A stretch of DNA of 17,831 bases from a virus. Taxonomy: Duplodnaviria; Heunggongvirae; Uroviricota; Caudoviricetes. A program made the translations under genes and the position numbers. The notes under the pieces were generated by a model that saw only the letters and a program-made list of their open reading frames with translations, was not told the origin of the DNA and made no database searches. The first letter of the stretch is position 1. Each line of letters begins with the position of its first letter. The stretch is from the IMG/VR virus record IMGVR_UViG_2695420624_000004, one strand, 5' to 3'. Shown piece after piece: positions 2,397-17,831 of the stretch.

Positions 2397-3518
2397 TTAG
2401 TCATCAACCGCGACTCCTGCACAATCATGGGCTATTGCCAGCAATTGTTTTTTAATTGCTTTAGCATCTACCGTCATATCTACTGTAGCAAAATGGATCT
2501 TATGTCCCTGAGTGACAACATACTCATTAAGCATATAGCCAACAGCTGGATGAAGTAGAAGACCAGCGGCATTGAGCGAAAGCGGATCCGTCTTGTTCTC
2601 CTGTGTTCTAAGGTAGGTATATAGCTGATAAATATAGCCATTACGTAGTGATTGCTCCCGATGCCAACCCTTTGTCAGAATCGAATTAAATTTGGTATCG
2701 ATAATAATACGCCGCTGGGCAGTCTTGTGTTCCAGAATAATGTCTGACTTCATTGTCGGGAAAATCTCTGCACTACCTGCACTTTGATCGCTCAACGCCC
2801 ATTTCAGCTCTTTCCCTGCAGAGACCTGCCAAGTTGTTTTGGCAAGGTGTACACGATATAAGCCAGCGATACCTTTTTCAAATAGTCTTCTCATCCAGTA
2901 AAGGTTATTTGAGGGCGCAGGTAAAAGATATTGGCCTTGATCTTCGGTCGGCATCAGCAGTTCAAAAGCTAATCGTGCGGCATCGACCATCGGTTTATCT
3001 GCGGCATCATGGCGTCCAAAACGCCACACTGAGGGTAATTCGCGGGGGGCAGGATATCCTCCATTTATCCCCTCACGGCGAAGTGATATTGCCATAAAAT
3101 GGCAATCTGCCGCCAAAGACGGTTTCACTATGATTGAGGCCAGACGTTCTAACGCACAGCGAACATAGCGATTTCGGGGGGTGTTGAGGGTTATGTCTTG
3201 AAAATGGCAGGCAACCTGTCCCCGTTCCAGCAGTTGATGACTGGCAGTATACAGTATGTCAATGCGCCCTCTCACCCGGTTCAGGGCCGCATGACAAGTT
3301 TGGTATCCCATATTTAAATTGCGACGTCGGCGCAGCGTAATCTCATGAAGGAGGATTGTCGCCACCAGGTCGGGGATTTCTGCTGGGTTATCTTCTACTG
3401 CGATCTGATTGCGCCCTAACTGGCGAAACAGATCTGAAGCGTACAGCATCAGCATCCAGATATTTCGCATGGGAATACGTGATGCTGTATGTTGCTCACT
3501 CCCGGTTATTGTCGTCAT
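2397..3518 (-). CDS. McrC-family nuclease subunit of a Type IV (modification-dependent) restriction system
   Basis: 373-aa ORF. N-terminal PMRNIWMLMLYA resembles the McrC N-terminus; the IIIDTKF...QSLRNGYIYQLYTYL block matches the McrC PD-(D/E)xK nuclease region. Start ATG overlaps the upstream stop as ATGA. Confidence 0.8.
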   Translation of the reverse strand: MTTITGSEQHTASRIPMRNIWMLMLYASDLFRQLGRNQIAVEDNPAEIPDLVATILLHEITLRRRRNLNMGYQTCHAALNRVRGRIDILYTASHQLLERGQVACHFQDITLNTPRNRYVRCALERLASIIVKPSLAADCHFMAISLRREGINGGYPAPRELPSVWRFGRHDAADKPMVDAARLAFELLMPTEDQGQYLLPAPSNNLYWMRRLFEKGIAGLYRVHLAKTTWQVSAGKELKWALSDQSAGSAEIFPTMKSDIILEHKTAQRRIIIDTKFNSILTKGWHREQSLRNGYIYQLYTYLRTQENKTDPLSLNAAGLLLHPAVGYMLNEYVVTQGHKIHFATVDMTVDAKAIKKQLLAIAHDCAGVAVDD

Positions 3519-5497
3519 TTTGCTAATAACACTTTTCTGGCTTCATCGACTTTATTTGGAGCATCGAACCAATATTCGGCGAGCAAAGGGCAGATCTCTG
3601 TATCAACGACTTGTTCATACCAAGCCTGGGCATCGTTGATTTTTTGGCCGATAGCTGGGGTGACATAGCTGTGACCGATACAAAACTGTGGTCCTAAGGT
3701 AACATCTTTTGCCAGCATATCGTTTAATACCGTCAGTCGAGATTTGATGAATGCTAACATGTCAAAATCAATTGCGTAATTATAATTTACCCAGTTTCTC
3801 CACGCGTCATTAAAAGCTGGCTTTAGATCGATAAACGCGAAACGACGGCGCAGCGCTAGGTCAAGTAGTGCGAGTGAGCGGTCTGCAATATTCATCGTAC
3901 CGATGATATATAGATTCTCAGGAATGTATATTTTTTCATCAGCATTTTTAGGATAGGAAAGAGATAATGCCTCAGTCGGCGTGCGTTTATCTGCTTCCAT
4001 CAACGTGAGTGTTTCACCGAAGATTTGCGCCGGATTGCCACGATTAATCTCTTCAATTATCACCACATATTTCGAGGTAGGATTATTGACTGCAGTTTTG
4101 ATTGCATTTACAAAAGGTCCATCAATTAGCGTCAATTGCCCTTCTTTACCTGGACGCCAGCCTCGAATAAAGTCTTCGTAAGAGAGGTTCGGGTGAAATT
4201 GCACCGCGCTAATACGCTCAGGTGCTTTTTCTCCCATCAAGCAGTACGCCAGACGTCGCGCTAACCAAGTTTTTCCAGTTCCGGGTGGTCCTTGTAATAT
4301 CAGGTTTTTCTTGTCGATCAGGCGCTGAAGTGTGAGTTGGATCTTAGCCTCTTCCAAGAAACAGCCATCCTGCACCAGATGACTGATGTCATAAGGAACG
4401 TGGGTGAGTTTTGGCAACAGCGCACTCTCTTCGACAGTTTCCTCAGTTATCGTCTGGGATTCGTTTTTCTCAAAATTCAGGTATTCATAATTTCCGGACT
4501 CGAGGGACTTTAACTCATCATCATTGCATAGTTTCTGTAGATAAAAGTAGATTGAGCTTGTAACAGTTTTGCTCTCAGGATGCTCTACCTTGAATACGTC
4601 CAAGTAGTTTTCTTCCAACTCCGAAGCAGTGAAATAAGGGCCATTTTTTTTCAGGCATAACGCCTTAATTTTATTCAGTAAAGAGGCTTTCCACGTTCTA
4701 TTTGCCACCTCATCTTTAGACTGGCTAAGATCTGTATTCCACGCTGATAAGGAAAGTTCTGGGAAAGAATGAACCGGATAGTTTGGTTGGGTAAAGACCT
4801 CGTTCAGCGCCCGCATAAGACTCAGGTAACTTTGTCCACTACAGCGACCTTTTGCCCCGTTTTTAATGATCTTAATGTTTAACACTGTCTGAATGTAATA
4901 CTGCGACTGGCTATCTAAAGTGGGGTAGAACCAAGGACGGGTCCAGTACAACCCCATGGTGAGATTCCAACCGACATTCATTACTGTAGAAGCGATGTCA
5001 TATGCGGCAGTGAAGTCTGCAGAGTTAGTATTCTGGTTATCCGCAAAGATCATTGCCTGTGAGAACATTTCCCACAAGCATTCAATGTCATTAGGGTCGC
5101 GTGACTTTTCATAACCAAAGAACCAAGATTTTTGGTTATTCAACAGAGGGATTCCGGCAAAGGAGTCAGGAATCGGTTCGTTCACGCCCAACAAATTCGC
5201 TAGCTTGGCAGCAATAATTTTGCGATTGCTGTCGGTCAAGTTACGATTGAACAAGCCCATAGTAGTAAACGGACAAATGTCTTTTAAGGGAAAGATCTCT
5301 CCCATAATAGATTTGTCCTGCAGATGGGACATTCCTTCCACACCCGAGGCAATTAGATGAATACCTTTGACTAATTCATCTCTACGATTTCGCCAAGTCA
5401 GTAACGCGTTGGCAAAAGCCTCATAAAAACTAGCCCAAGCAAACTTGCCATCATGTTCTGCTGTATCCACGGGAACTCCATTATACTTGTTGAGCAA
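3515..5497 (-). CDS. McrB-family AAA+ GTPase with an extended, uncharacterised N-terminal region of about 400 aa
   Basis: Walker A LILQGPPGTGKTW and a C-terminal IIGTMNIADRS...ALRRRFAF block typical of McrB. The annotated start is TTG; an in-frame GTG at 5470 with GGAG 5 nt upstream and a TATAAT just before it is a plausible alternative start. Confidence 0.85.
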   Translation of the reverse strand: MLNKYNGVPVDTAEHDGKFAWASFYEAFANALLTWRNRRDELVKGIHLIASGVEGMSHLQDKSIMGEIFPLKDICPFTTMGLFNRNLTDSNRKIIAAKLANLLGVNEPIPDSFAGIPLLNNQKSWFFGYEKSRDPNDIECLWEMFSQAMIFADNQNTNSADFTAAYDIASTVMNVGWNLTMGLYWTRPWFYPTLDSQSQYYIQTVLNIKIIKNGAKGRCSGQSYLSLMRALNEVFTQPNYPVHSFPELSLSAWNTDLSQSKDEVANRTWKASLLNKIKALCLKKNGPYFTASELEENYLDVFKVEHPESKTVTSSIYFYLQKLCNDDELKSLESGNYEYLNFEKNESQTITEETVEESALLPKLTHVPYDISHLVQDGCFLEEAKIQLTLQRLIDKKNLILQGPPGTGKTWLARRLAYCLMGEKAPERISAVQFHPNLSYEDFIRGWRPGKEGQLTLIDGPFVNAIKTAVNNPTSKYVVIIEEINRGNPAQIFGETLTLMEADKRTPTEALSLSYPKNADEKIYIPENLYIIGTMNIADRSLALLDLALRRRFAFIDLKPAFNDAWRNWVNYNYAIDFDMLAFIKSRLTVLNDMLAKDVTLGPQFCIGHSYVTPAIGQKINDAQAWYEQVVDTEICPLLAEYWFDAPNKVDEARKVLLAK

Positions 5498-5830: not shown

Positions 5831-6415
5831 TTATTCCATAACAGGGATTGCAGGCCACTCAATATCAGGTGCAGTTGATGTATCAACACGATTCAGCAAC
5901 ACCCGATACTTCTTCCAGGCTTCAAGCAACGAGGTTTCTTCCTCCGTTGCGATTTCCAGATCTGCAGCATCCTGAAGCGGGGCAATATGCTCACTGGCTA
6001 CCTGCATCAGGCTGTTTTTTGTTTCTTCCGCCTCCCGGATCCGGAACAGTTTTTCTGCTTCCGTATCCTTCACCCAGGCTGTGCCGTTCCACTTCTGAAA
6101 CTCCCCTTCCGGGGATAACCAGGTGATATTTTCCGGTAGAGGTCCGAGTTCAGAAATAAATAACGAGTCGCCGGAAGCCACGTCATAGACGGTTTTTCCC
6201 CGATGATCTTCAACGAGATGCCACGATGCCTCATCACTGTTGAAAACAGCCACGAAGCCTACCGGAATATCTGGCGGTGCAATATAGGTACTGTTTGCTG
6301 GCAGACCTGTATGAGGCGGAATATATGCGTCACCTTCACCAATAAATTCATTAGTTCCGGCCAGCAGATTATAAATTTTTATGGTCCGTGGTTGTTCACT
6401 CATTCTGAATGCCAT
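5831..6415 (-). CDS. tfa: Tail fibre assembly protein (lambda Tfa-like)
   Basis: 194-aa ORF ([24 protein letters not shown]...WPAIPVME), near-identical to lambda Tfa as I remember it. Start overlaps the stf stop by 1 nt (TAATG). Confidence 0.9.
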
Positions 6416-9264
6416 TATGCAAGCCTCACAATGTAGTTAAATGCGATGTTTTTGACGGTGTTTTCCGCGTTACCAGCAGCGTTAACGGTGATGGTGTGTC
6501 CATGTGAGCCAATCGCAACGGAGTGCGTATGAGCACCAATACCGACAGTATGTGCATGTGCGCCTGCGCTTGCAGCAGTGCCGGACAGCGAGTGGGTATG
6601 AGCACCATCTGATGATGTCTTCCCTGCATTACGAGTCTGGCCACTACCGCTTGTTGTGCTCATAATCCCCGCGCTTGGATTTGAAATCGCGGTATAACCA
6701 TTAGGGAAAATGCTCGTGTTCGTGCCACCAAATGCACCGGAACTCTTGTGTTGGTGCGCGCCGGCACTATTTGCGGTCCCGCTAATACTATGGGTATGCG
6801 CCCCGGTGTTATTCGTGGATTTGGTTCCGTAATCAAACGACGATGTGGTTTTCGTCCCCAAATCCGTACTGGATGCGCTGGCGCTGTGGGTGTGCGATTT
6901 AATGCCGTCCTGTTCCTGAGACAATACGGCCCGACCACTGGCAGGTTTGCCCTTAATCGTCCAGCCACGCATATCAGGGATCACGCCTGACGGATAAGCG
7001 GCTGCAAGTTTCGGGTAAGCAGATTTGTCAAAAGTCTGCCCCTGCATCAGGGCATAACCAGACGGAACGGTATCTGATGGCCACGGGATTGGTGCGCCGA
7101 CTGGGTAGCTTTCTGGTGGAAGATTTTTCGAGGTATAAACTTCTGCCCAGCCTTCCTCAAAACCATAACCGTCTCTTGAAGAACGGTAGAACAGACCACC
7201 ATTTCTGTAATGCGCCTTCATCTGCAGGGTCCGGCAACTTCCGACTCCGGTATAGAAGTTAACCAGAATATAGCTGTCGCCAGAGCGGGTGACATTGTAA
7301 GCGCCTGATTCGGCATTCCAGGGAACGCCACCATCCGCATCGGCATATGTATCCGTTGCCCTTCTGGCAAAAGCAGCCACATGCGCGGCGGTTAAAGTAA
7401 TATCTTTGGAACCATCAAATGGAACACCGGATATTTTTCTTGCAGTCTGGAGTTTTGTAGCAGTTGCAGCATTACCAGTGGTGTTCTGATTACCCGTAGT
7501 GTTTACACCTGGAAGGTTAATATTTGCAGAACCGTCGAAAACAACTCCACCGATAGATCTTGCCGTCTGCAATTTCGTGGCTGTACTTGCATTACCATTC
7601 AATGAACCAGTTAATCCACCTGTAACAGACAACGGACCTGAAACTGTTCCTCCGGTTGTTGGCAGTGCTCCAATATCTGATGGTGTAGGTTTCTGATGTG
7701 AGCTATACATCGTATAAACAACACCATAGGTAACGCTGGAAGGCTTACTCGCTGAATATGTTGGCGAGGTATAAACAGAAACTGACGCATTTGCAGTACA
7801 ATCCCAATGGATATTTACACTCGTCGCATAATTGCCAATCTCAACGTAAATATCATATGTATCGCCGGATGTGTTGATCCAGGCGAAATTCGTTAATCCG
7901 ACGGCTGTACGCTTCCACAAAGCCCCGGTAATTCCTTTGGGGTTTCCATTGCCTGCTCGTAGAACCAGTTCTGAAATGCCTGCCTGATGTGGGGAACCGA
8001 CGTTGTAACCAGCGCCACCAATCAATGCGATGTAAACGATGGAACTCGCTTGTGGCATGGTAACCGTAGCCAGTTTGAACCACCCAGCCCCGCCAGAGAA
8101 AGACATCGTTACTGAATTTAAAGTACCAATATCTTTCGGCGTTAATGTTATATCCGCAGTCAGTGCTTTTCCGTTAACTTTTCGGTTAGATGGCACCCTG
8201 CTATTCGCATTGTCATTGGCTGCTTTAACTGCTTTTGGCGTTGCGGCCAGCGATTCACTGGTGCTATCAACAGCACTGCTAAGTTTCACAACACCTTTAG
8301 TTGTAAGGCTTGCGTCTTCCATCGCAACTGCACCGGCAATCTCTTCAGCACGATCAGCAGCAGCTTCCGCACGGGTCGCAGCGGATTCAGCAGTAGTTTT
8401 GCTCTGAGATGCCGCCGTCGCACTGCCAGCTGCCTCTGTCGCCTTCGTGGATGCTGTCGTGGCGCTGCCTTTCGCTGCTGATGCCTGTCTGCTCGCCTCA
8501 TCTTTTGAAGCAGACGCAGATGATGCCGATGACGCCGCCGAACTGGCGGACGATGCAGCTGCCATTTTTGAGGATTCTGCACTGGTTTCCGAGGCTTTCG
8601 CGTTCGTTTCGGATGTCTTCGCTGCGGATGCAGACCTCGCTGCTGCGCTGGCCTGTTCAGCGGCTTCGCCAGCCTTCGTTGTGGCTGTTGAAGCAGACGA
8701 TGCGGCGCTTTCTGCCGATTTTCCGGCGGCGGTGGCACTGGCTGAGGCCTGCCCGGCACTTGTTGACGCGGCACTGGCAGACGACGCAGCCGCTGTTTTT
8801 GAGCCTGCCGCAGCCGAGGCGCTCTGTCCCGCTGCCGTTTCAGAAGACCTGGCGTTTGTCTCAGACGTCTTTGCCGCCTTCGCGGAATTGCCTGCCGCCG
8901 TTGCCGAGGAAGCGGCACTACTGGCGCTTGATGATGCGTTCGTTTCTGATGATTTCGCTGCCTCTTTTGAGGCCGCCGCATCCCGGGCTGAGGTGGCTGC
9001 TTCTGACGCCTTCGTGGTCGCGGCGGATGCAGAAGTGGCTGCTGATTGTTGTGACGCTGCCGCATTCGTTTCTGACGTTTTCGCCGCACCGGCACTGGTA
9101 GCTGCCGCGCTTTTTGAGGACTCTGCAGCAGCACTTTTTGCTGCTTCACGGGCCTTTGTCGATGCCGTTCCTGCGCTGGAAGACGCTGACTGAGCCGACG
9201 ACGCGGCCTGTCCGGCTGACGTGCTGGCGGCACGTGCTGAGCCTGCAGCATCGGTTATTACCAC
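6415..9264 (-). CDS. stf: Side tail fibre protein (lambda Stf-like), body and receptor-binding tip; N-terminal part is in another frame
   Basis: Long Ala/Ser-rich KTSETNA-type fibre repeats, a conserved GAPIPWPSD...[24 protein letters not shown] region and a His-rich HxH C-terminal tip ending [11 protein letters not shown]. Confidence 0.85.
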
Positions 9265-9577
9265 TTCCCGGATCGCTATACGCTATTCCGTTAAAGATAA
9301 TGGGCGGAATAATGATTTGACGGTCAAAGTTATGATCATCGCTGATGGTGACTGTAACCGTCCCGTTTGGTGTTTCCGTATTACCCCACGTACCAGCCTG
9401 TTTCGGGAATGATTTGGATACAGCTTTAACGAAGTCACCTCTGACCGGACTCCCCTGCCCGTCAACCAGGCTTATCAGCGTGGTGCCGGAAGATGGCAGC
9501 GTGATTTCACGGTCGAGCGTCAGCGTCCGGGTCTGGCTGTTTACCGCCAGCACGCGCCCGCCGGTGCGGATACCCAA
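9146..9577 (-). pseudogene. Upstream segment of the tail-fibre reading frame, out of frame with the stf body (frameshift or junction)
   Basis: This ORF overlaps the stf body ORF at 9146-9264 in a different frame. Its first ~100 codons look like real protein, then it degenerates into an out-of-frame read of the Ala/Ser repeats. Assignment as Stf N-terminus is tentative. Confidence 0.4.
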
Positions 9578-9795
9578 GCTGGAGTGGCGAACGTTTTACC
9601 CTTGCTGATGAGGTATTCACTGATTTCGCTGTACCACATGTGGCTGAGTGCATTCTGGGAAAGACTGCGTCTCTCGCGCCACGGTTTAAGCACCATGCGA
9701 AAGCATTTGCCGTCCTCCAGATAAGGCTGGATCTGCCGACCGATAGCGGTGAAGTTACCGCGATGCAATTTGATACCATCTTGTGGGAGGTTCAC
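9541..9795 (-). pseudogene. NinB/YbcN-family protein, N-terminal fragment truncated by a deletion joint
   Basis: 84-aa ORF with GTG start preceded by GGAGG. The block KPWRERRSLSQNALSHMW resembles the NinB RSLDQNRKLW region. The ORF ends prematurely in non-homologous sequence near 9541-9580. Confidence 0.45.
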
Positions 9796-9989
9796 GCTTC
9801 ACCTCCGCAGAGATCAAACGCTGGATGCAAAATATCGCAGGTGCATTTCTGCATCTGTGAATGGAGAAGAGAGGTTGGATTGTATGTGCGCATAAACGTC
9901 CCCGTTTAGCGCAGAAGTCACCGGAGTTGTTCAGGCCCCAATGGCATGATTATGGCTGGTTGATTATTGGAAATCAAATGTGCTGAAAA

Positions 9990-10499
9990 TTAGTCTGCCA
10001 AGTCTTCCTCAGTCGCAACTGGGTAATTCCAAATATCAAAAAAAGCTATAGCCTCCTGCCATTTGCTCCATAAGTTATCAAGTACTTGTGTAGGTTCCGT
10101 ACTTTTAAAAACAGAATCAGCCGCATCACCGTTATGAACTTCCTCGTACAGTTCCATTATTAGCAGATTAACAAAGTACTGTTTCAACATTAATGCCTGA
10201 TTACCTTCTTTCTGCTGGCTATCCTGCTTGATGATCTCCATCGCCCGTACTAGGCACCTGATGATATCCGCTGCATCATTAACGCTCCATTCAGATCCGC
10301 GCTTATCTTTAGCTGATGAATTGGCTCTCTCAGCGCAAGCCTTTAAAGACTCATAAAGGTAAACTCTATTTTGTAGCTGCAGCGCTTTTTTTGACGTGTA
10401 CCAACTTGCAAGCGCCGACCCCGCTGCGGCTAATGTGCCAAACGCAGAAATACCTGCTGCTATTGCACTTAAGTCGGCACTGTCAAAGTTCCACATCAT
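9990..10499 (-). CDS. Hypothetical 169-aa protein with one N-terminal hydrophobic helix (membrane-anchored); stand-alone moron
   Basis: ATGATG start preceded by AAGGTG at 5-nt spacing. Upstream AT-rich region has -35/-10-like elements. Residues 10-33 (LSAIAAGISAFGTLAAAGSALASW) are hydrophobic; the rest is charged and helical-looking. No family recognised. Confidence 0.6.
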   Translation of the reverse strand: MMWNFDSADLSAIAAGISAFGTLAAAGSALASWYTSKKALQLQNRVYLYESLKACAERANSSAKDKRGSEWSVNDAADIIRCLVRAMEIIKQDSQQKEGNQALMLKQYFVNLLIMELYEEVHNGDAADSVFKSTEPTQVLDNLWSKWQEAIAFFDIWNYPVATEEDLAD

Positions 10500-11168: not shown

Positions 11169-12695
11169 TCAAAAATAAACCTCACCATCAACCATATATT
11201 TGAGAGTACTTATCGCCTGCTGGGCGGATATTGTTTTCATTAAAGGATAGTGTTTAAAAACAATGCCATTCATAAAATAGATATCACAGGTTTTATTATC
11301 TGTATTGATTATGATTTTTTCGAATGTTTTATAGGCAAGTGTACGACATAGCTCTCGCCCATTTTTACTGGTTAAGTCAATAGCATGAAAATCACCAAGT
11401 GAACTCACCGCTTTACTCTTCAAAGTTTTTAATGATACAGAAGCCCTTCGTAATTCCTTATCTAATACTCTGATTTTTTCTGCTATAGCGGTAACTTCAG
11501 GCGCAACAGATAATGCAGCAATTAAATTATTAATTTTCATCTGGAGCTCAATAATTTTCAACTCTAAAGTTTCATTAGCATCTTTCTTGTTTTCAACTGG
11601 TTGGATTTTACTACAATTAAAAAGCAACTCATTAATGATATTATAATCAACCAAATCTCTCTTTATTGATGGCCTGTCACATCGATGCAGTCTTCTCATC
11701 GGACAAACATAATAGCCATGCAAACTTCCAGATACCGCATGAACAATCATGGTATTACCACAAGCCTCGCACTTCATAACTGTTCGAAGTAGATTTATCA
11801 ACATAGGATTTTTGCTACTATTGCTAATACCAAAAGGTGCCAACCGAATTTCCTGCACAGCGTAAAACAAATCATCTGATATGACTCTGGGATAATAGCC
11901 AGCGATTTCACTTATTCCTTTACCTCTTGCACGATATGAAGGTACGCATATACCTATCAGAGCTTTATTCGCTAATAATTTTTCAATTACAGAAGGTCCC
12001 CATGCACTTTCTTTTCCTGAGAAATTCTTTACAGCATGATCATTTAAATACTTGGCTATTGCATTCAATGAGCGCCTTTCCATCCTGAGTTTAAAAATTA
12101 GCTCAATAGTTTTCACCCTGTCGGGGTCTGGAACAAAAGCCGTTCTTTTGTCATCCAATGAGAGCCATCTCGGACAAGACGCCGTCATAATCGTGCCTGA
12201 CTCCAGTGCATCCTGCCGTTTTTTCTTCCATGATAATTTAACCCGACTTGACTTTATCTCGCTTTCTTCATTTGCCCTTTGTGCTATAAGTATGGCTTTT
12301 ATTAATGAATATGGCTCATTCAATGAGTCAATATTATAGACTGTATTATCGCAAAGAGTTATAACATCAATACCGTGATTCAAAATCAATTTCAGACGCT
12401 CAATCGCCTCACCGACTTTTTCTCTTGAAAGTCTGTCCAGACTTTCAACTAACAATGTAGTCCCTGGCAATATATAACCATGTTCTATAGCATCTAAAAA
12501 TTCCGAAAAAGCTCCTGATTGTGCATGCTTTCCATTGAATGCGCTTAACCCCAAATCTTCATACGTTACGGTATCAAGGTAATAATCACTATTTACCTTT
12601 AGCCATTCAGTAATAAGCCTTCTCTGGCGGTTTAATGAATCACCAGACATCTGACTTGGTGATGAAAATCGCATATATGCTATGGCTTTTTTCAT
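11169..12695 (-). CDS. ybcK: Large serine recombinase (YbcK-like)
   Basis: 508 aa. N-terminal resolvase-type catalytic domain (AIAYMRFSSPSQ with the presumed serine nucleophile), recombinase domain and a Cys-rich zinc-ribbon region (CEACG...CPMRRLHRC). Length and position next to emrE match DLP12 ybcK. Confidence 0.8.
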   Translation of the reverse strand: MKKAIAYMRFSSPSQMSGDSLNRQRRLITEWLKVNSDYYLDTVTYEDLGLSAFNGKHAQSGAFSEFLDAIEHGYILPGTTLLVESLDRLSREKVGEAIERLKLILNHGIDVITLCDNTVYNIDSLNEPYSLIKAILIAQRANEESEIKSSRVKLSWKKKRQDALESGTIMTASCPRWLSLDDKRTAFVPDPDRVKTIELIFKLRMERRSLNAIAKYLNDHAVKNFSGKESAWGPSVIEKLLANKALIGICVPSYRARGKGISEIAGYYPRVISDDLFYAVQEIRLAPFGISNSSKNPMLINLLRTVMKCEACGNTMIVHAVSGSLHGYYVCPMRRLHRCDRPSIKRDLVDYNIINELLFNCSKIQPVENKKDANETLELKIIELQMKINNLIAALSVAPEVTAIAEKIRVLDKELRRASVSLKTLKSKAVSSLGDFHAIDLTSKNGRELCRTLAYKTFEKIIINTDNKTCDIYFMNGIVFKHYPLMKTISAQQAISTLKYMVDGEVYF

Positions 12696-12880
12696 GGTGA
12701 CACCTGCTAAAGTATGCTTTTATAAACCTTAGTGGTGAGATATGATTTTTGTTTAATTTTTATTTAAAAAGACAATTAAGGTCACATTATCTTGAATATA
12801 CAACAATAATCGTATTGCAATTTTCTTACACCATAATCTTGAAAGCACAAAAGAATGAATAAAAACTAAAGACATTAACA

Positions 12881-12919
12881 AAAAGCATAAAACGAGGCCC
12901 ATATAAATATACGAGCCTC
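12881..12919 (-). terminator. Possible emrE terminator (weak hairpin plus T-rich tract)
   Basis: GAGGC/GCCTC 5-bp stem with a long AT-rich loop, followed on the minus strand by GTTTTATGCTTTTTG, about 30 nt after the emrE stop. Confidence 0.3.
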
Positions 12920-12950
12920 CATATTTTAGTCGTTTAAAAACAAATTATTT

Positions 12951-13283
12951 TTAATGTGGTGTGCTTCGTGACAATAAATTAATAACCAACACACCGGCAC
13001 AAATCAACATCATGCCTATAATGGCTGGCAGGTCCAACCGTTGGCCGAAAAATCCCCATGATAGTAAGCTAATCAGGACAATACCGACTCCTGACCAGAT
13101 AGCATAAGCAATCCCTGTAGGAATATAAGCCAGCGTCTGAGCTAATAACCAGAATGATGCACAATAACAAATAATTGTACCAACAGATGGCCATAACCGT
13201 GTAAAACCTTCTGAAAACTTCATTAAGGTTGTACCAATGACCTCTGCAAGTATTGCACCACCAAGATAAATATAAGGATTCAT
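12951..13283 (-). CDS. emrE: SMR-family multidrug efflux protein EmrE (110 aa)
   Basis: MNPYIYLGGAILAEVIGTTLMKFSEGF...LLSRSTPH is essentially the EmrE sequence. The ORF track's 128-aa version starts 18 codons upstream; the true start is the ATG at 13283. Confidence 0.9.
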   Translation of the reverse strand: MNPYIYLGGAILAEVIGTTLMKFSEGFTRLWPSVGTIICYCASFWLLAQTLAYIPTGIAYAIWSGVGIVLISLLSWGFFGQRLDLPAIIGMMLICAGVLVINLLSRSTPH

Positions 13284-13350
13284 AGCATATTCTTTCCTGT
13301 TCAAACTGGAGAGAATTGTACTACAGTTTGAACTCAACTCACCTGTTTCA

Positions 13351-14351: not shown

Positions 14352-14584
14352 AGATCCACCCCGTAAATCCAGTCAGTGTTTGTCAGGTCGAGTTTTGGTT
14401 TGCCGACTGTCACGCCAGCCTGTTGCTTGTTCCGGTTGATTTCGAGCTGGGTCCACTTGTCGCGGAGTTTGGCCGGACTCAGCACGTTACCGGACCAGAA
14501 GTTGTCCTGGCAGGCCCAGCGGAACAGTACACACATGTCGCGGTGGTTACGTCCATCACGTTCACGCATCAGACGGATATCGTT
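14348..14584 (-). pseudogene. O: Replication protein O, C-terminal ~78 codons only
   Basis: ...[59 protein letters not shown]...[13 protein letters not shown] matches the lambda O C-terminus. The first 16 codons of the ORF-track call are antisense to exo and not O. Confidence 0.8.
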
Positions 14585-15238
14585 ACCGGGATCGACGTGA
14601 GAGCTGTCGAACAGGGGGATGATGCGTGGCACAAATTACGGCTCGGCGTCATCACCGCTTCAGAAGTTCACAACGTGATAGCAAAGCCCCGCTCAGGAAA
14701 GAAGTGGCCTGACATGAAAATGTCCTACTTCCACACCCTGCTTGCCGAGGTTTGCACCGGTGTGGCTCCGGAAGTTAACGCTAAAGCACTGGCCTGGGGA
14801 AAACAGTACGAGAACGACGCCAGAACCCTGTTTGAGTTCACTTCCGGCGTAAATGTTATTGAATCCCCGATCATCTATCGCGACGAAAGTATGCGCACCG
14901 CCTGCTCTCCCGATGGTTTATGCAGTGACGGCAATGGCCTTGAACTGAAATGCCCGTTTACCTCCCGGGATTTCATGAAGTTCCGGCTCGGTGGTTTCGA
15001 GGCCATAAAGTCGGCTTACATGGCCCAGGTGCAGTACAGCATGTGGGTGACGCGAAAAGATGCCTGGTACTTTGCCAACTATGACCCGCGTATGAAGCGT
15101 GAAGGCCTGCATTATGTCGTGGTTGAGCGGGATGAAAAGTACATGGCGAATTTTGACGAGATGGTGCCGGAGTTCATCGAAAAAATGGACGAGGCACTGG
15201 CTGAAATTGGTTTTGTATTTGGGGAGCAATGGCGATGA
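14585..15238 (+). pseudogene. exo: Lambda exonuclease (Exo/Red-alpha) lacking its first ~9 codons; joined head-to-head to O'
   Basis: From [41 protein letters not shown] to the C-terminal FVFGEQWR this is near-identical to lambda Exo. The N-terminal 54 codons of the ORF-track call are antisense to O. No ATG start at the joint. Confidence 0.8.
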
Positions 15239-15393
15239 CGCATCCTCACGATAATATCCGGGTAGGCGCGATCACTTTCGTCTACTCCATTACAAAGCGA
15301 GGCTGGGTATTTCCCGGCCTTTCTGTTATCAGAAATCCACTGAAAGCACAGCGGCTGGCTGAGAAGATAAATAACAAACAGGAGGATATATGA
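15235..15393 (+). CDS. Small 52-aa ORF, lambda orf60a-like, coupled to exo
   Basis: [55 protein letters not shown] overlaps the exo stop (ATGA) and its stop overlaps the next ATG (ATATGA). Not in the ORF track because it is under 60 aa. Resemblance to lambda orf60a is from memory. Confidence 0.5.
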
Positions 15394-16454
15394 GTCAGGT
15401 TGGTAATCATTCATTCGAATTTCCGGCATCGCAAGGTGTACAGGGTGGTACTGTTACACTCTTCCTTACCATACCAGGAAGATCGCTGGCTCGTTTCCTC
15501 GCTTCAGATAATTACGGCCATACACTGGAACGCTCTCAGCGAGAAATTAATCCAAATCGAGTACGAAAATTTTTAAATTATCTCACTAACGCAGACTCAA
15601 GAAATGAGCCTTTTATCATTCCCCCTCTCGTAGGTAACTGTGATTCGAATATAGAATTTGTACCGTTTGGCAACACAAATGTTGGTATAGCCAGAATTCC
15701 CCTCGACGCCGAAATAAAACTTTTTGATGGTCAACATCGTGCAGCTGGCATTGAGATATTTTGCCGAAGTTCCCCATCAACGCTCATGGTTCCCATGATG
15801 CTTACAATGAATCTGCCGCTAAAAACCCGGCAGCAGTTCTTTTCGGACATAAATAACAACGTTTCTAAGCCATCAGCGACCATCAATATGGCGTATAACG
15901 GCCGGGATGATATTGCTCAGGGAATGATATCCTTCCTGACCCAACATACTGTATTTGCCGATATAACCGATTTTGAACACAACGTAGTGCCATTAAAAAG
16001 TAATATGTGGGTGAGTTTCAAGGCACTCACTGATGCAACGTCAAAGTTCGCTAGGAACGGCAATCAACAACTTGAAATGGGATATATAGAATCTGTCTGG
16101 GAGGCATGGATTACACTAACTCAGATTGACTCAATCCGACATGGTGTACACCACGCTACGTACAAGCGCGATTATATTCAGTTCCATGGAGTAATGATTA
16201 ACGCTTTCGGTTTTGCGGTTCAACAGATGATGGTTAATCATTCCATCGCAGAAATAACTTCTATGATCGAAAAACTATGTGCAACTACCAGCTCTGCAGA
16301 AAGAGAGGATTTTTTTCTGATGGATAACTGGGCGGGGATCTGCACGAAAGCCAGCCAGGAAAAACTATCTGTTATTGCCAATGTGGCAGCGCAGAAAGCA
16401 GCAGCAAACAGACTGATACAAGCTTTTACCAAAGGAAGTCTGGAAACAACTTAA
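15390..16454 (+). CDS. DGQHR-domain (DndB-like, ParB/Srx-type) protein, 354 aa
   Basis: Literal motif FDGQHRAAGIE at about residues 113-123, in the position expected for DndB/DGQHR proteins. Translationally coupled to the upstream small ORF and followed by a terminator. Confidence 0.7.
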   Translation: MSQVGNHSFEFPASQGVQGGTVTLFLTIPGRSLARFLASDNYGHTLERSQREINPNRVRKFLNYLTNADSRNEPFIIPPLVGNCDSNIEFVPFGNTNVGIARIPLDAEIKLFDGQHRAAGIEIFCRSSPSTLMVPMMLTMNLPLKTRQQFFSDINNNVSKPSATINMAYNGRDDIAQGMISFLTQHTVFADITDFEHNVVPLKSNMWVSFKALTDATSKFARNGNQQLEMGYIESVWEAWITLTQIDSIRHGVHHATYKRDYIQFHGVMINAFGFAVQQMMVNHSIAEITSMIEKLCATTSSAEREDFFLMDNWAGICTKASQEKLSVIANVAAQKAAANRLIQAFTKGSLETT

Positions 16455-17162: not shown

Positions 17163-17831
17163 ATGTGAACCGCCCCGGGTTTCCTGGAGAGTGTTTTATC
17201 TGTGAACTCAGGCTGCCAGATCATCGTTTCCGATGGAAGCATAATAAGCTTTTTCTGCTTCTGCCGGAGGAGTATGGCCCAGCCTTTCCAGCAATCGTCG
17301 ATTGTTATACCAGTCCACCCACGTGAGTGTGGCCAGTTCCACTTCTGCACGGTTTTTCCAGCTCTTACGGTGTATTACCTCCGCTTTGTAAAGACCATTG
17401 ATGCTCTCCGCCATCGCGTTGTCATACGAGTCGCCTGTACTTCCTGTTGATGCCAGTAATCCGGCTTCCTTAAGCCGCTGTGTGTAGGCCAGCGATACAT
17501 ACTGAGAACCTTTATCACTGTGATGGACCGTGCCGGACGGTCGACGGGCCCATAACGCCTGCTCCAGTGCATCCAGCACGAATGTCGTTTCCATGGACGA
17601 TGAGACCCGCCACCCCACGATGTATCCGGCAAACACATCAATGATGAACGCCACATAGACGAAGCCCCGCCATGTGCTGACGTAAGTAAAATCAGCCACC
17701 CACAGCTGGTCAGGTCGTTCTGCCACGAACTGACGGTTTACGCGGTCGCCTGCGGCAACGGCTTTCCGGCTGATGGTCGTACGGACCTTTTTACCCCGGA
17801 GAACACCGGCAAGTCCCATAACCGCCATGAG
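17163..17831 (-). mobile_element. IS3-family insertion sequence (IS629/IS3411-like end), truncated by the window edge
   Basis: Terminal inverted repeat beginning TGAACCGCCCCGGGTTTCCTGGAGAG at 17163, about 45 bp from the transposase stop. Only the orfB-proximal end is present. Confidence 0.75.
17208..17828 (-). CDS. IS3-family transposase OrfB (DDE integrase core), partial; N-terminus outside the window
   Basis: 206 aa of open frame running to the window edge. Contains IS3-family DDE-core-like blocks (HSDKGSQY, DNAMAES). Confidence 0.8.
   Translation of the reverse strand: MAVMGLAGVLRGKKVRTTISRKAVAAGDRVNRQFVAERPDQLWVADFTYVSTWRGFVYVAFIIDVFAGYIVGWRVSSSMETTFVLDALEQALWARRPSGTVHHSDKGSQYVSLAYTQRLKEAGLLASTGSTGDSYDNAMAESINGLYKAEVIHRKSWKNRAEVELATLTWVDWYNNRRLLERLGHTPPAEAEKAYYASIGNDDLAA

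Follow-up and report, generated by a model that had tools for sequence, protein, structure and literature searches.

Remnants of ninB, J and stf at three deletion joints in a defective lambdoid prophage at icd of Escherichia coli

The locus and its setting

The window analysed here, i.e., the whole 17,831-nucleotide stretch of the IMG/VR record IMGVR_UViG_2695420624_000004, is a defective lambdoid prophage of E. coli at icd. It combines phage genes at an att site with the loss of functions essential for the lytic cycle, as none of the Q, lysis, terminase, head or tail genes is present in the window. An icd' pseudogene lies at one end, while relatives show xis-int-icd at the other; the early region is DLP12-like, and an McrBC-like cassette occupies the far end of the window. 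The cargo of the prophage comprises the McrBC-like genes, a DndB-like gene and emrE. The minus strand from 9800 to 9146 is prophage debris, made of half a ninB, two scraps of J and an stf that has lost its front, with three deletion scars. The features are as follows, the coordinates listed being on the minus strand:

Early-right module: P, ren, emrE, a ybcK-type serine recombinase, a P22AR_C protein, a 169-aa protein, orf33 and ybcN
9571..9795: 5' fragment of ninB/ybcN, codons 1-75 of 151, with a GTG start at 9795
9571..9574: joint 1, ninB'::'J; GGTA is common to both parents in the alignment with ybcN and intact J
9441..9574: J fragment 1, J residues 488-531, identified by BLASTP, tblastn and nucleotide identity
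9441..9446: joint 2, J'::'J; 6-nt repeat GGTCAG (9 of 11 nt when extended)
9253..9446: J fragment 2, covering J residues 989-1056 and with them the first half of the receptor-binding domain at the C-terminus
9253..9256: joint 3, J'::'stf; AACC is common to J and the PSS-10-type stf allele
9146..9577: chimeric ORF of J fragment 1, J fragment 2 and 35 codons of out-of-frame stf
6415..9252: 5'-truncated 'stf, codon 147 to the stop, without the N-terminal tail-attachment (collar) domain
5831..6415: tfa, the tail fibre assembly gene, intact (Pfam PF02413 Caudo_TAP, E=7e-44)

The order on the minus strand is ninB/ybcN (9795-9571), J (9574-9441), J (9446-9253), stf (9252-6415) and tfa.

Several known prophages resemble this arrangement in part. 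The early-right module is 99.8% identical to that of DLP12-type prophages such as L005. Like DLP12 of E. coli K-12 (ren-emrE-ybcK-...-ybcN-ninE-ybcO-rusA-quuD...), the prophage is a defective lambdoid element with large internal deletions, but DLP12 is integrated at argU, whereas the window lies at icd, its ybcN breaks off at codon 75 and continues as J, and its cargo is McrBC-like and DndB-like. On the other hand, the icd site and the duplicated 3' end of icd, with an icd' pseudogene located opposite xis-int in relatives, are shared with the e14/phage 21 family. As in e14, where the gene in question is mcrA, the prophage is defective and a modification-dependent restriction gene is placed at the int-distal end. 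Unlike e14, the window is a lambda/DLP12-like mosaic that contains McrBC-like genes instead of mcrA and no Pin invertase.

Identity of the fragments

The homologies in the stretch range from E=1e-13 to E=1e-36, far past chance. An earlier note on this DNA had proposed that a truncated ninB directly abuts a tail-related frame, and this is borne out: the ORF running from 9795 to 9541 ceases to be ninB after codon 75, and the ORF from 9577 to 9146 adjoins it. Nucleotides 1-225 of the ninB fragment are 100% identical to the intact ybcN of L005, with divergence at 9571/9570, after which nine unrelated codons lead to a stop at 9541-9543. ORF 9541-9795 matches the NinB/Orf (YbcN) family (phrog_72, E=1.7e-21) over residues 1-75 against profile positions 7-82 of 161, short of the complete domain of about 146-151 aa, and the corresponding fragment in E2 is annotated as 'NinB/YbcN family protein, missing C-terminus'. 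ORF 9541-9795 is a pseudogene fragment.

The adjoining stretch, 9146-9577, had been taken for the N-terminus of Stf. Instead, 9253-9574 is homologous to lambda gpJ, in two segments whose residues are numbered here from a 1137-aa J. J fragment 1 matches lambda J at 91% over residues 488-531 (BLASTP, E=2e-22) and the J of L007 with E=1e-18 (tblastn), and shows 100% nucleotide identity with the intact gpJ gene of strain 120899. J fragment 2 matches residues 989-1056 of L007 J at 94% (tblastn, E=9e-36) and contains Pfam PF12421 Ig_GpJ_C (E=3.2e-13, profile positions 1-71 of 135); the second match to lambda J in the window has E=5e-15 (BLASTP). While the intact 1137-aa J displays six Pfam domains (FNIII-A, Phage-tail_3, Ig_J, Ig_J_second, Phage_Tail_Tip and Ig_GpJ_C), only 44 + 68 residues, drawn from two separate places, are left in 9253-9574. 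Thus, the stretch is unrelated to the side tail fibre Stf, although in a loose sense it is tail-fibre-related, as J is the central tail fibre. Beyond 9253 the J-derived ORF reads stf out of frame until a stop at 9146. The resulting chimeric ORF is without biological meaning, and exact-protein look-ups with two possible starts retrieved no gene on record for its product.

A change of frame into the Ala/Ser-rich stf ORF (9264 to 6415) does exist, as the earlier note had stated, but it is located at 9253-9256 rather than at 9264-9290, and it is a J::stf deletion joint, with J sequence 5' of 9253, rather than a frameshift within stf. ORF 6415-9264 has collar and fibre-repeat Pfam matches and is homologous to the Stf shaft and tip, with tfa downstream. 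It matches PHROG tail fibre families, the phrog_3299 match beginning at profile position 149. The 'stf-tfa segment is 99.2% identical at the nucleotide level to stf plus tfa in strain PSS-10, whose stf is intact and encodes 1093 aa, and homology to the intact stf allele begins at nt 435-439. The N-terminal tail anchor is missing from this ORF, whose frame starts at codon 147. In the intact Stf of L007, the PF08400 domain covers residues 1-134 (E=1.3e-71); it is absent from all window proteins in Pfam searches, and tblastn with Stf residues 1-145 and with Lom returned no match in the window. The collar by which the fibre is held on the tail consists, in Ur-lambda, of Stf residues 1-91 (PMC12617516). 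To judge from the sequence, the 'stf product would be unable to attach to a tail.

The stf-tfa pair had also been described as surviving next to the restriction cassette. It does adjoin the McrBC-like cassette, but stf lacks codons 1-146 and is not intact. A scan for promoters and terminators found no more sites than in shuffled sequence and no sigma-70-like site upstream of 'stf, and no Shine-Dalgarno sequence is evident for 'stf-tfa. Programmed frameshifting from J' into stf was also considered and rejected, given that inspection revealed no slippery heptamer at GGTAATAACCGATG and that the J' frame is without a credible start.

Deletion joints and successive decay

The single ninB joint of the earlier note stands, but the stretch contains three joints, including one at 9441-9446 that had been missed, rather than one joint plus a frameshift. 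Joint 1 fuses ninB codon 75 to J codon 488. Joint 2 corresponds to an in-frame loss of 537 bp (179 codons) relative to the form found in 17 other genomes (see below). Joint 3 fuses J codon 1056 to stf codon 147, with a loss of 1,412 bp relative to L007 and L014 that takes in all of J beyond codon 1056, lom and the first 146 codons of stf, with the whole PF08400 tail-attachment domain; it is out of frame, the J side contributing 108 codons plus 1 nt. With these stf codons gone, no correction of the frame can restore the gene.

Of 5,426 complete E. coli genomes, 17 contain joints 1 and 3 with every base identical. These carriers come from several countries and hosts, with 97-100% identity over the joints, and joint 3 is also identical in two IMG/VR contigs, which retain the long J' form. 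By contrast with the recurrence of this form, joint 2 was found in no other sequence among complete E. coli genomes, one-genome-per-species contigs and metagenome contigs.

Less decayed relatives at icd still carry what the window has lost, which upholds the earlier proposal that a deletion at ninB removed the late regulatory, lysis and head genes and most tail genes. L009 and L013, of the icd prophage family, retain ninB-ninE-ybcO-rusA-ylcG-quuD-porin-essD-rrrD-rzpD-bor-nohD-terL', and a gene run from ninB via Q and lysis to nohD/terL' is present in 730V1 and E94. On the other side of the deletion, L007 keeps I-J-lom-stf-tfa, and NCTC9967 has I-J-lom-stf-tfa-McrBC at icd. Decay has also gone further in some relatives. 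In the near-identical Z1323HEC0011 the stf body is missing, as are a further 254 bp of J', and in Z1323CEC0012 the loss extends from P as far as the final 129 nt of stf, so 'stf can be dispensed with. The tfa gene is present in all decay forms that were examined.

Taken together, the stretch very probably represents non-functional debris of successive deletions in an icd lambdoid prophage, i.e., ordinary prophage decay. A first deletion between ninB and J would have taken about 24.6 kb (lambda-equivalent), with the rest of nin, Q, and the lysis, packaging, head and tail genes. A second, of 1.4 kb, would have joined J codon 1056 to stf codon 147. The J remnant would then have been shortened, the window's own step being the 537-bp in-frame loss between the two copies of GGTCAG. 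The order and number of these events are inferred. In the 17-genome form, each of the two J segments has its best match in a different J allele, so the history may also involve recombination between prophages.

The microhomologies of 4-6 nt at the joints (GGTA, GGTCAG and AACC) look like the signature of illegitimate recombination. Judged on the letters, each of joints 1-3 appears to be a microhomology deletion, with parental identity within the 2-10 nt range and neither IS nor att sequence. Replication slippage or microhomology-mediated end joining would account for them, rather than site-specific or homologous recombination. No IS is located at the joints, no hairpins or notable repeats were found at 6541, 9253 or 9574, and the window contains no Chi sites. 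Deletion at pseudo-sites by a Pin/Hin-type or YbcK-type recombinase was also considered and seems unlikely, as inspection of the end points showed no symmetrical crossover site.

A holin'::'J joint with the same J start nucleotide, GGTA microhomology and 99.7% identity is present in Qin-like prophages, both in E. coli 042 and in numerous further strains. These prophages differ from the window in having holin instead of ninB on the left, in lying at the ydfJ locus, and in that J runs to its natural end. As the J-side nucleotide is the same, joint 1 may have arisen in two steps, an older holin'::'J deletion followed by one from ninB to that joint via TGGGTA (GCTTGGGTA vs GCTGGGTA). The J fragment of 042 starts at the same nucleotide (GGTA followed by TCCGCACC) and is 99.7% identical over 342 nt, and the intact holin reads GTGCTGGGTA at the break, which would give 6 nt of homology with ninB as opposed to 4 nt for a direct ninB-J event. 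However, intact gpJ genes with this J allele exist as well, down to the SNP beside the joint, so that a shared truncated ancestor is not required and the SNP common to the window and the 042 holin'::'J cannot serve as proof of common descent. Moreover, the 042 remnant is located at another chromosomal site, and no icd prophage with holin'::'J was found. Such a two-step origin is considered possible but rather unlikely.

Along the same line, deletion end points in relatives within this prophage family coincide with older joints more often than the analyst had expected. Apart from the J end shared by ninB'::'J and the Qin-like holin'::'J, the J'::'J joint of the 17-genome form is the same as the terL'::'J joint of strain 52F4, and the private stf deletion of Z1323HEC0011 begins 0-3 nt from joint 3. 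That deletion and the independent P'::'stf joint of Z1323CEC0012 end in the same TA(CC) at window positions 6540-6543, which is also the edge of a conserved stf-3'/tfa module. The end points might be non-random, with new deletions that repeatedly begin or end at a distance of 0-3 nt from one another or from an older joint, but this is considered unlikely.

Persistence of the stf-tfa remnant and its meaning

Under the decay reading, ninB' and J' would be dead pseudogene fragments, and the 'stf-tfa frame would be open only because the event is recent. It has to be weighed against selection for 'stf-tfa, whether as a fibre-tip donor for incoming lambdoid phages or because an expressed fibre fragment serves the host independently of any tail. 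The 949-codon 'stf frame and tfa are indeed open, tfa has outlasted each form of decay examined, and the stf 3' end plus tfa form a widely shared module, 94% identical to lambda, that offers homology for recombination. On the other hand, the carriers are 99.5-100% identical, so open frames are expected without selection; the stf body has gone in close relatives; no expression signals are evident for 'stf-tfa; and the retention of tfa can be explained by its position beside the McrBC-like cargo. Selection is accordingly regarded as quite improbable. At most, infecting lambdoid phages might acquire a new fibre tip from 'stf-tfa through homology, and linkage to the McrBC-like cargo appears to be the simplest explanation for its persistence.

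Less probable still, and very unlikely overall, is an artefact of sequencing or assembly, confined to this one assembly, as the source of the frame break, of the joints or of both. The private joint 2, found in no other genome, contig or protein record searched, is where a misassembly or consensus error might be suspected, but its perfect repeat of 6 nt is too short for an assembler to collapse, and the near-identical Z1323HEC0011 has private secondary deletions of the same kind. An error at the frame break, an eventuality left open in the earlier note, is excluded: joints 1 and 3 are not assembly errors, because they are identical in 17 complete, independently assembled genomes, and the IMG/VR contigs agree. 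The idea of an stf with an internal, repairable frameshift, as annotated in lambda PaPa (orf-401/orf-314; PMC12617516), has hardly any credibility left, since ORF 9146-9577, though tail-related and placed immediately before the stf body in a different frame, matches J and Ig_GpJ_C rather than Stf and PF08400, and stf homology is confined to one side of the break. The likeness to PaPa is limited to a disabled side tail fibre gene next to an intact tfa, as PaPa has a single-base frameshift in an otherwise complete stf, while the window has a 1.4-kb deletion that no change of frame can revert.

Beyond correct annotation, under which the locus consists of ninB', J' and 'stf pseudogene fragments rather than of a frameshifted stf open to repair, the result has little importance. 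The prophage is unable to make particles, and what is likely to be relevant to the host is confined to its cargo, namely the McrBC-like cassette, the DndB-like gene and emrE. The series of private deletions could serve as a strain-typing marker, and near-identical relatives with different private deletions provide a tidy natural case of stepwise prophage erosion. If the clustering of end points were true, it could stem from a break or joining activity with site preference, or from hot spots at module boundaries, rather than from chance, and it would inform on how prophage erosion proceeds.

Layout of the icd prophage and its early-region genes

The window is a 17.8-kb defective lambdoid prophage of E. 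coli at icd, a deletion-eroded DLP12-like/lambda-like mosaic of a well-known kind that occupies the chromosomal site of e14 and phage 21. Its nearest complete genomes (n=17) cover 80-96% of it at 98.4-99.9% identity and carry xis-int-icd beyond its right end. In RefSeq the pieces already carry annotation as partial NinB/YbcN and tail-tip pseudogenes; megablast of 8800-10100 returned, in relatives, 'NinB/YbcN family protein, missing C-terminus' and 'phage tail tip domain-containing protein, missing N- and C-terminus'.

Features of the prophage (a slash marks where the sequences part at a joint)
Left end, +: ycgX and iraM, host genes
Next, -: icd' pseudogene, first of the minus-strand genes
2397-3518, -: McrC-like gene (PF10117 match)
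3515-5497, -: McrB-like AAA_5 ATPase, 660 aa
5831-6415, -: tfa
6415-9264, -: long Ala/Ser-rich tail-fibre ORF
9252-6415, -: stf codon 147 to stop, then tfa; 99.2% identical to PSS-10 stf-tfa
9256-9253, -: joint 3, AACC common to J (GGTAATAACC/CGGG) and PSS-10-type stf (CATGCAACC/GATGCTG)
9446-9253, -: J residues 989-1056 (PF12421 E=3.2e-13; tblastn E=9e-36)
9446-9441, -: joint 2, crossover in GGTCAG
9574-9441, -: J residues 488-531 (91% identity to lambda J, E=2e-22)
9574-9571, -: joint 1, GGTA common to ninB (TTGGGTA/AAAG) and J (GCCGGTA/TC)
9795-9571, -: ybcN/ninB nt 1-225, 100% identical to the intact gene
Further right, -: 169-aa conserved phage protein, P22AR_C protein, YbcK-type large serine recombinase, emrE, ren, P, 5'-truncated O
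After O, +: exo, DUF1317, DGQHR/DndB-like gene, TraR/DksA gene, DUF4222
Right end: IS3-family element

The McrBC-like pair (2397-5497, -) lies at the int-distal end and is intact in every decay form examined. In the 660-aa ATPase, AAA_5 covers only residues 398-553, and the ~380-aa N-terminal region gave no family match. Strain E94 still has an immunity region with cI, cro, N, gam, bet and other genes, all of which is deleted here; at ~14580-14640 the truncated O (-) stands head to head with an exo (+) slightly short of full length, presumably the first deletion joint of the earlier note. The IMG/VR contig L010 also lacks exo (14586-15262). The DGQHR-domain protein (15390-16454, +) matches PADLOC DndB (E=4e-37); its gene sits in the early-left operon between the DUF1317 and TraR/DksA genes, and the surroundings contain no further dnd or dpd gene.

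Just upstream of ninB lie a 33-codon ORF (9792-9893, -), which is orf33 of phage 82, and the 169-aa gene (9990-10499, -; phrog_1779), whose product has no Pfam or PADLOC match; DLP12-type prophages carry both with 99.8% conservation. Between ren and the nin region, emrE and the recombinase (Resolvase, Recombinase and Zn_ribbon_recom domains) occupy 11169-13337 (-) as they do in DLP12, and this module is therefore common to prophages at different att sites.

A chain of three deletion joints from ninB to stf

Segments were mapped against lambda (L003), phage PhiR29_1 (L004), a DLP12-type prophage with intact ybcN (L005), the NCTC9967 icd prophage with intact I-J-lom-stf-tfa (L007), an intact gpJ with the same allele (L015) and the intact PSS-10 stf-tfa (L014). 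The truncation of ninB had been placed rightly, within about 10-35 nt; identity to intact ybcN stops after nt 225. The PHROG NinB/Orf profile matches residues 1-75 of the fragment (E=1.7e-21), and past joint 1 the frame picks up nine foreign codons before it stops at 9541. In lambda coordinates, the loss at joint 1 is equivalent to the stretch from 40,869 across cos to 16,965, some 24.6 kb. That late functions have gone, as had been proposed, is borne out by the less decayed icd relatives 730V1, E94 and NCTC9967, which still carry the missing genes; 730V1 and E94 keep ybcN-ninE-ybcO-rusA-ylcG-quuD-porin-essD-rrrD-rzpD-bor/iss-...-nohD(-terL'), and in NCTC9967 K'-I-J-lom-stf-tfa directly adjoins the same McrBC-like cassette.

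What follows joint 1 is central tail fibre (J) sequence. The first scrap (9574-9441) is 100% identical in nucleotides to gpJ of strain 120899, and the second (residues 989-1056) represents the first half of the Ig_GpJ_C receptor-binding domain. On this segment-by-segment anatomy, the ORF at 9146-9577 is the two J scraps plus 35 codons of out-of-frame stf. The earlier note had taken this ORF for the Stf N-terminus and had missed the internal joint 2, while recognizing the ninB joint. The PF08400 domain spans residues 1-134 of intact Stf (Pfam, E=1.3e-71), and tblastn found no trace of its region or of Lom anywhere in the window.

At joint 3 the J share amounts to 108 codons plus one base, so stf continues in another frame. 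The frame change noted previously was thus correctly located (within about 10-35 nt), but it is a J::stf deletion joint and not a frameshift; 1,412 bp are lost relative to NCTC9967 and PSS-10. The 949-codon ORF opens at a GTG (9264) that belongs to the J-derived part and is no genuine start codon. Antisense to the Ala/Ser-rich shaft runs a 248-aa ORF (8447-9193, +), hypothetical protein WP_021570482.1 in RefSeq with its own PHROG (phrog_560, E=2.5e-118) and a lambda counterpart, orf206b; it is probably no gene but a side effect of the repetitive GC-rich codons.

Distribution of the joints and continuing decay

Probes of 116 nt across joint 1 and 116 nt across joint 3 were searched in 5,426 complete genomes. 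Both find full-length matches in one and the same set of 17, at 100% in 16 and at 97.4% (joint 1) and 98.3% (joint 3) in the other. These genomes come from chickens (Korea, Japan), US poultry, a crow, hospital isolates, NCTC9100 and the laboratory strain ML35. Two IMG/VR contigs contain joint 3 as well. Joints 1 and 3 are not assembly errors, the artefact envisaged earlier for the frame break. The 17 genomes and both contigs have 537 bp of extra J material between 9441 and 9456. The J' of the 17 genomes is a mosaic in itself: over the first 340 nt it agrees at 100% with one gpJ allele, and the next 521 nt show only 91% identity to that allele and 99.2% to 'J of strain 52F4. Joint 2 was not found elsewhere among E. 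coli complete genomes, one-genome-per-species contigs, metagenome contigs or exact-protein look-ups, and the simplest reading is a putative in-frame deletion between two GGTCAG copies, recent and private to this sequence.

Strain Z1323HEC0011 is 100% identical to the window elsewhere and has the same IS3 insertion, together with other private deletions that remove the whole stf body and a further 254 bp of J'. From these sequences, secondary erosion is evidently still under way in this lineage, and the broad conclusion of prophage decay was right. The partial IS3-family transposase (17165-17831, -) sits between the DUF4222 gene and xis; among complete genomes examined its insertion is common only to Z1323HEC0011, and most relatives match the window only as far as 17165.

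Deletion end points and the remaining 'stf-tfa

All three joints carry microhomology of 4-6 nt, and no IS end, att-like site, flanking repeat or hairpin was found at any of them; they would therefore have formed by illegitimate, microhomology-mediated deletion. In four cases, end points in related prophages fall within 0-3 nt of older joints or of each other (window 6540-6543 and 9253-9257; in relatives, L006 8038-8042, L008 8040-8044, L001 9973/9974, L002 6884/6885 and L012 9058-9062). On its J side, joint 1 breaks at the very nucleotide where J begins in the holin'::'J remnant of Qin-like prophages, e.g., that of E. coli 042. Joint 1 may or may not have arisen in two steps, with a later deletion running from ninB to an older holin'::'J joint; the longer microhomology (TGGGTA) that this would give speaks for such a sequence of events, whereas the J allele concerned also exists in intact gpJ genes. 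The J'::'J joint of the 17 genomes falls at the point of the terL'::'J joint of 52F4. In Z1323HEC0011 the stf deletion begins 0-3 nt from joint 3, and its other end lies in the TA(CC) (6540-6543) in which the P'::'stf joint of Z1323CEC0012, an independent event, also lies. The conserved stf-3'/tfa module shared with lambda has its boundary at this point too (6541). No Chi site, hairpin/secondary structure or IS was found that explains such a hot spot.

In Ur-lambda Stf, residues 1-91 form a collar clamping the fibre onto the gpV/gpM junction, and the linker of residues 92-101 leads to a coiled coil that begins at 102 (PMC12617516). Judged against that structure, a Stf product beginning at residue 147 would be unable to attach to a tail. 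A promoter/terminator scan against shuffled sequence and inspection of starts gave no credible expression signals for the fragments; the open 'stf and tfa frames carry no weight because carriers differ by 0.5% or less, and the stf body is lost in relatives. That defective prophages act as homologous donors for infecting phages is a general idea in the literature on such elements, and the sole plausible leftover role for 'stf-tfa would be that of a homologous donor to incoming lambdoid phages.
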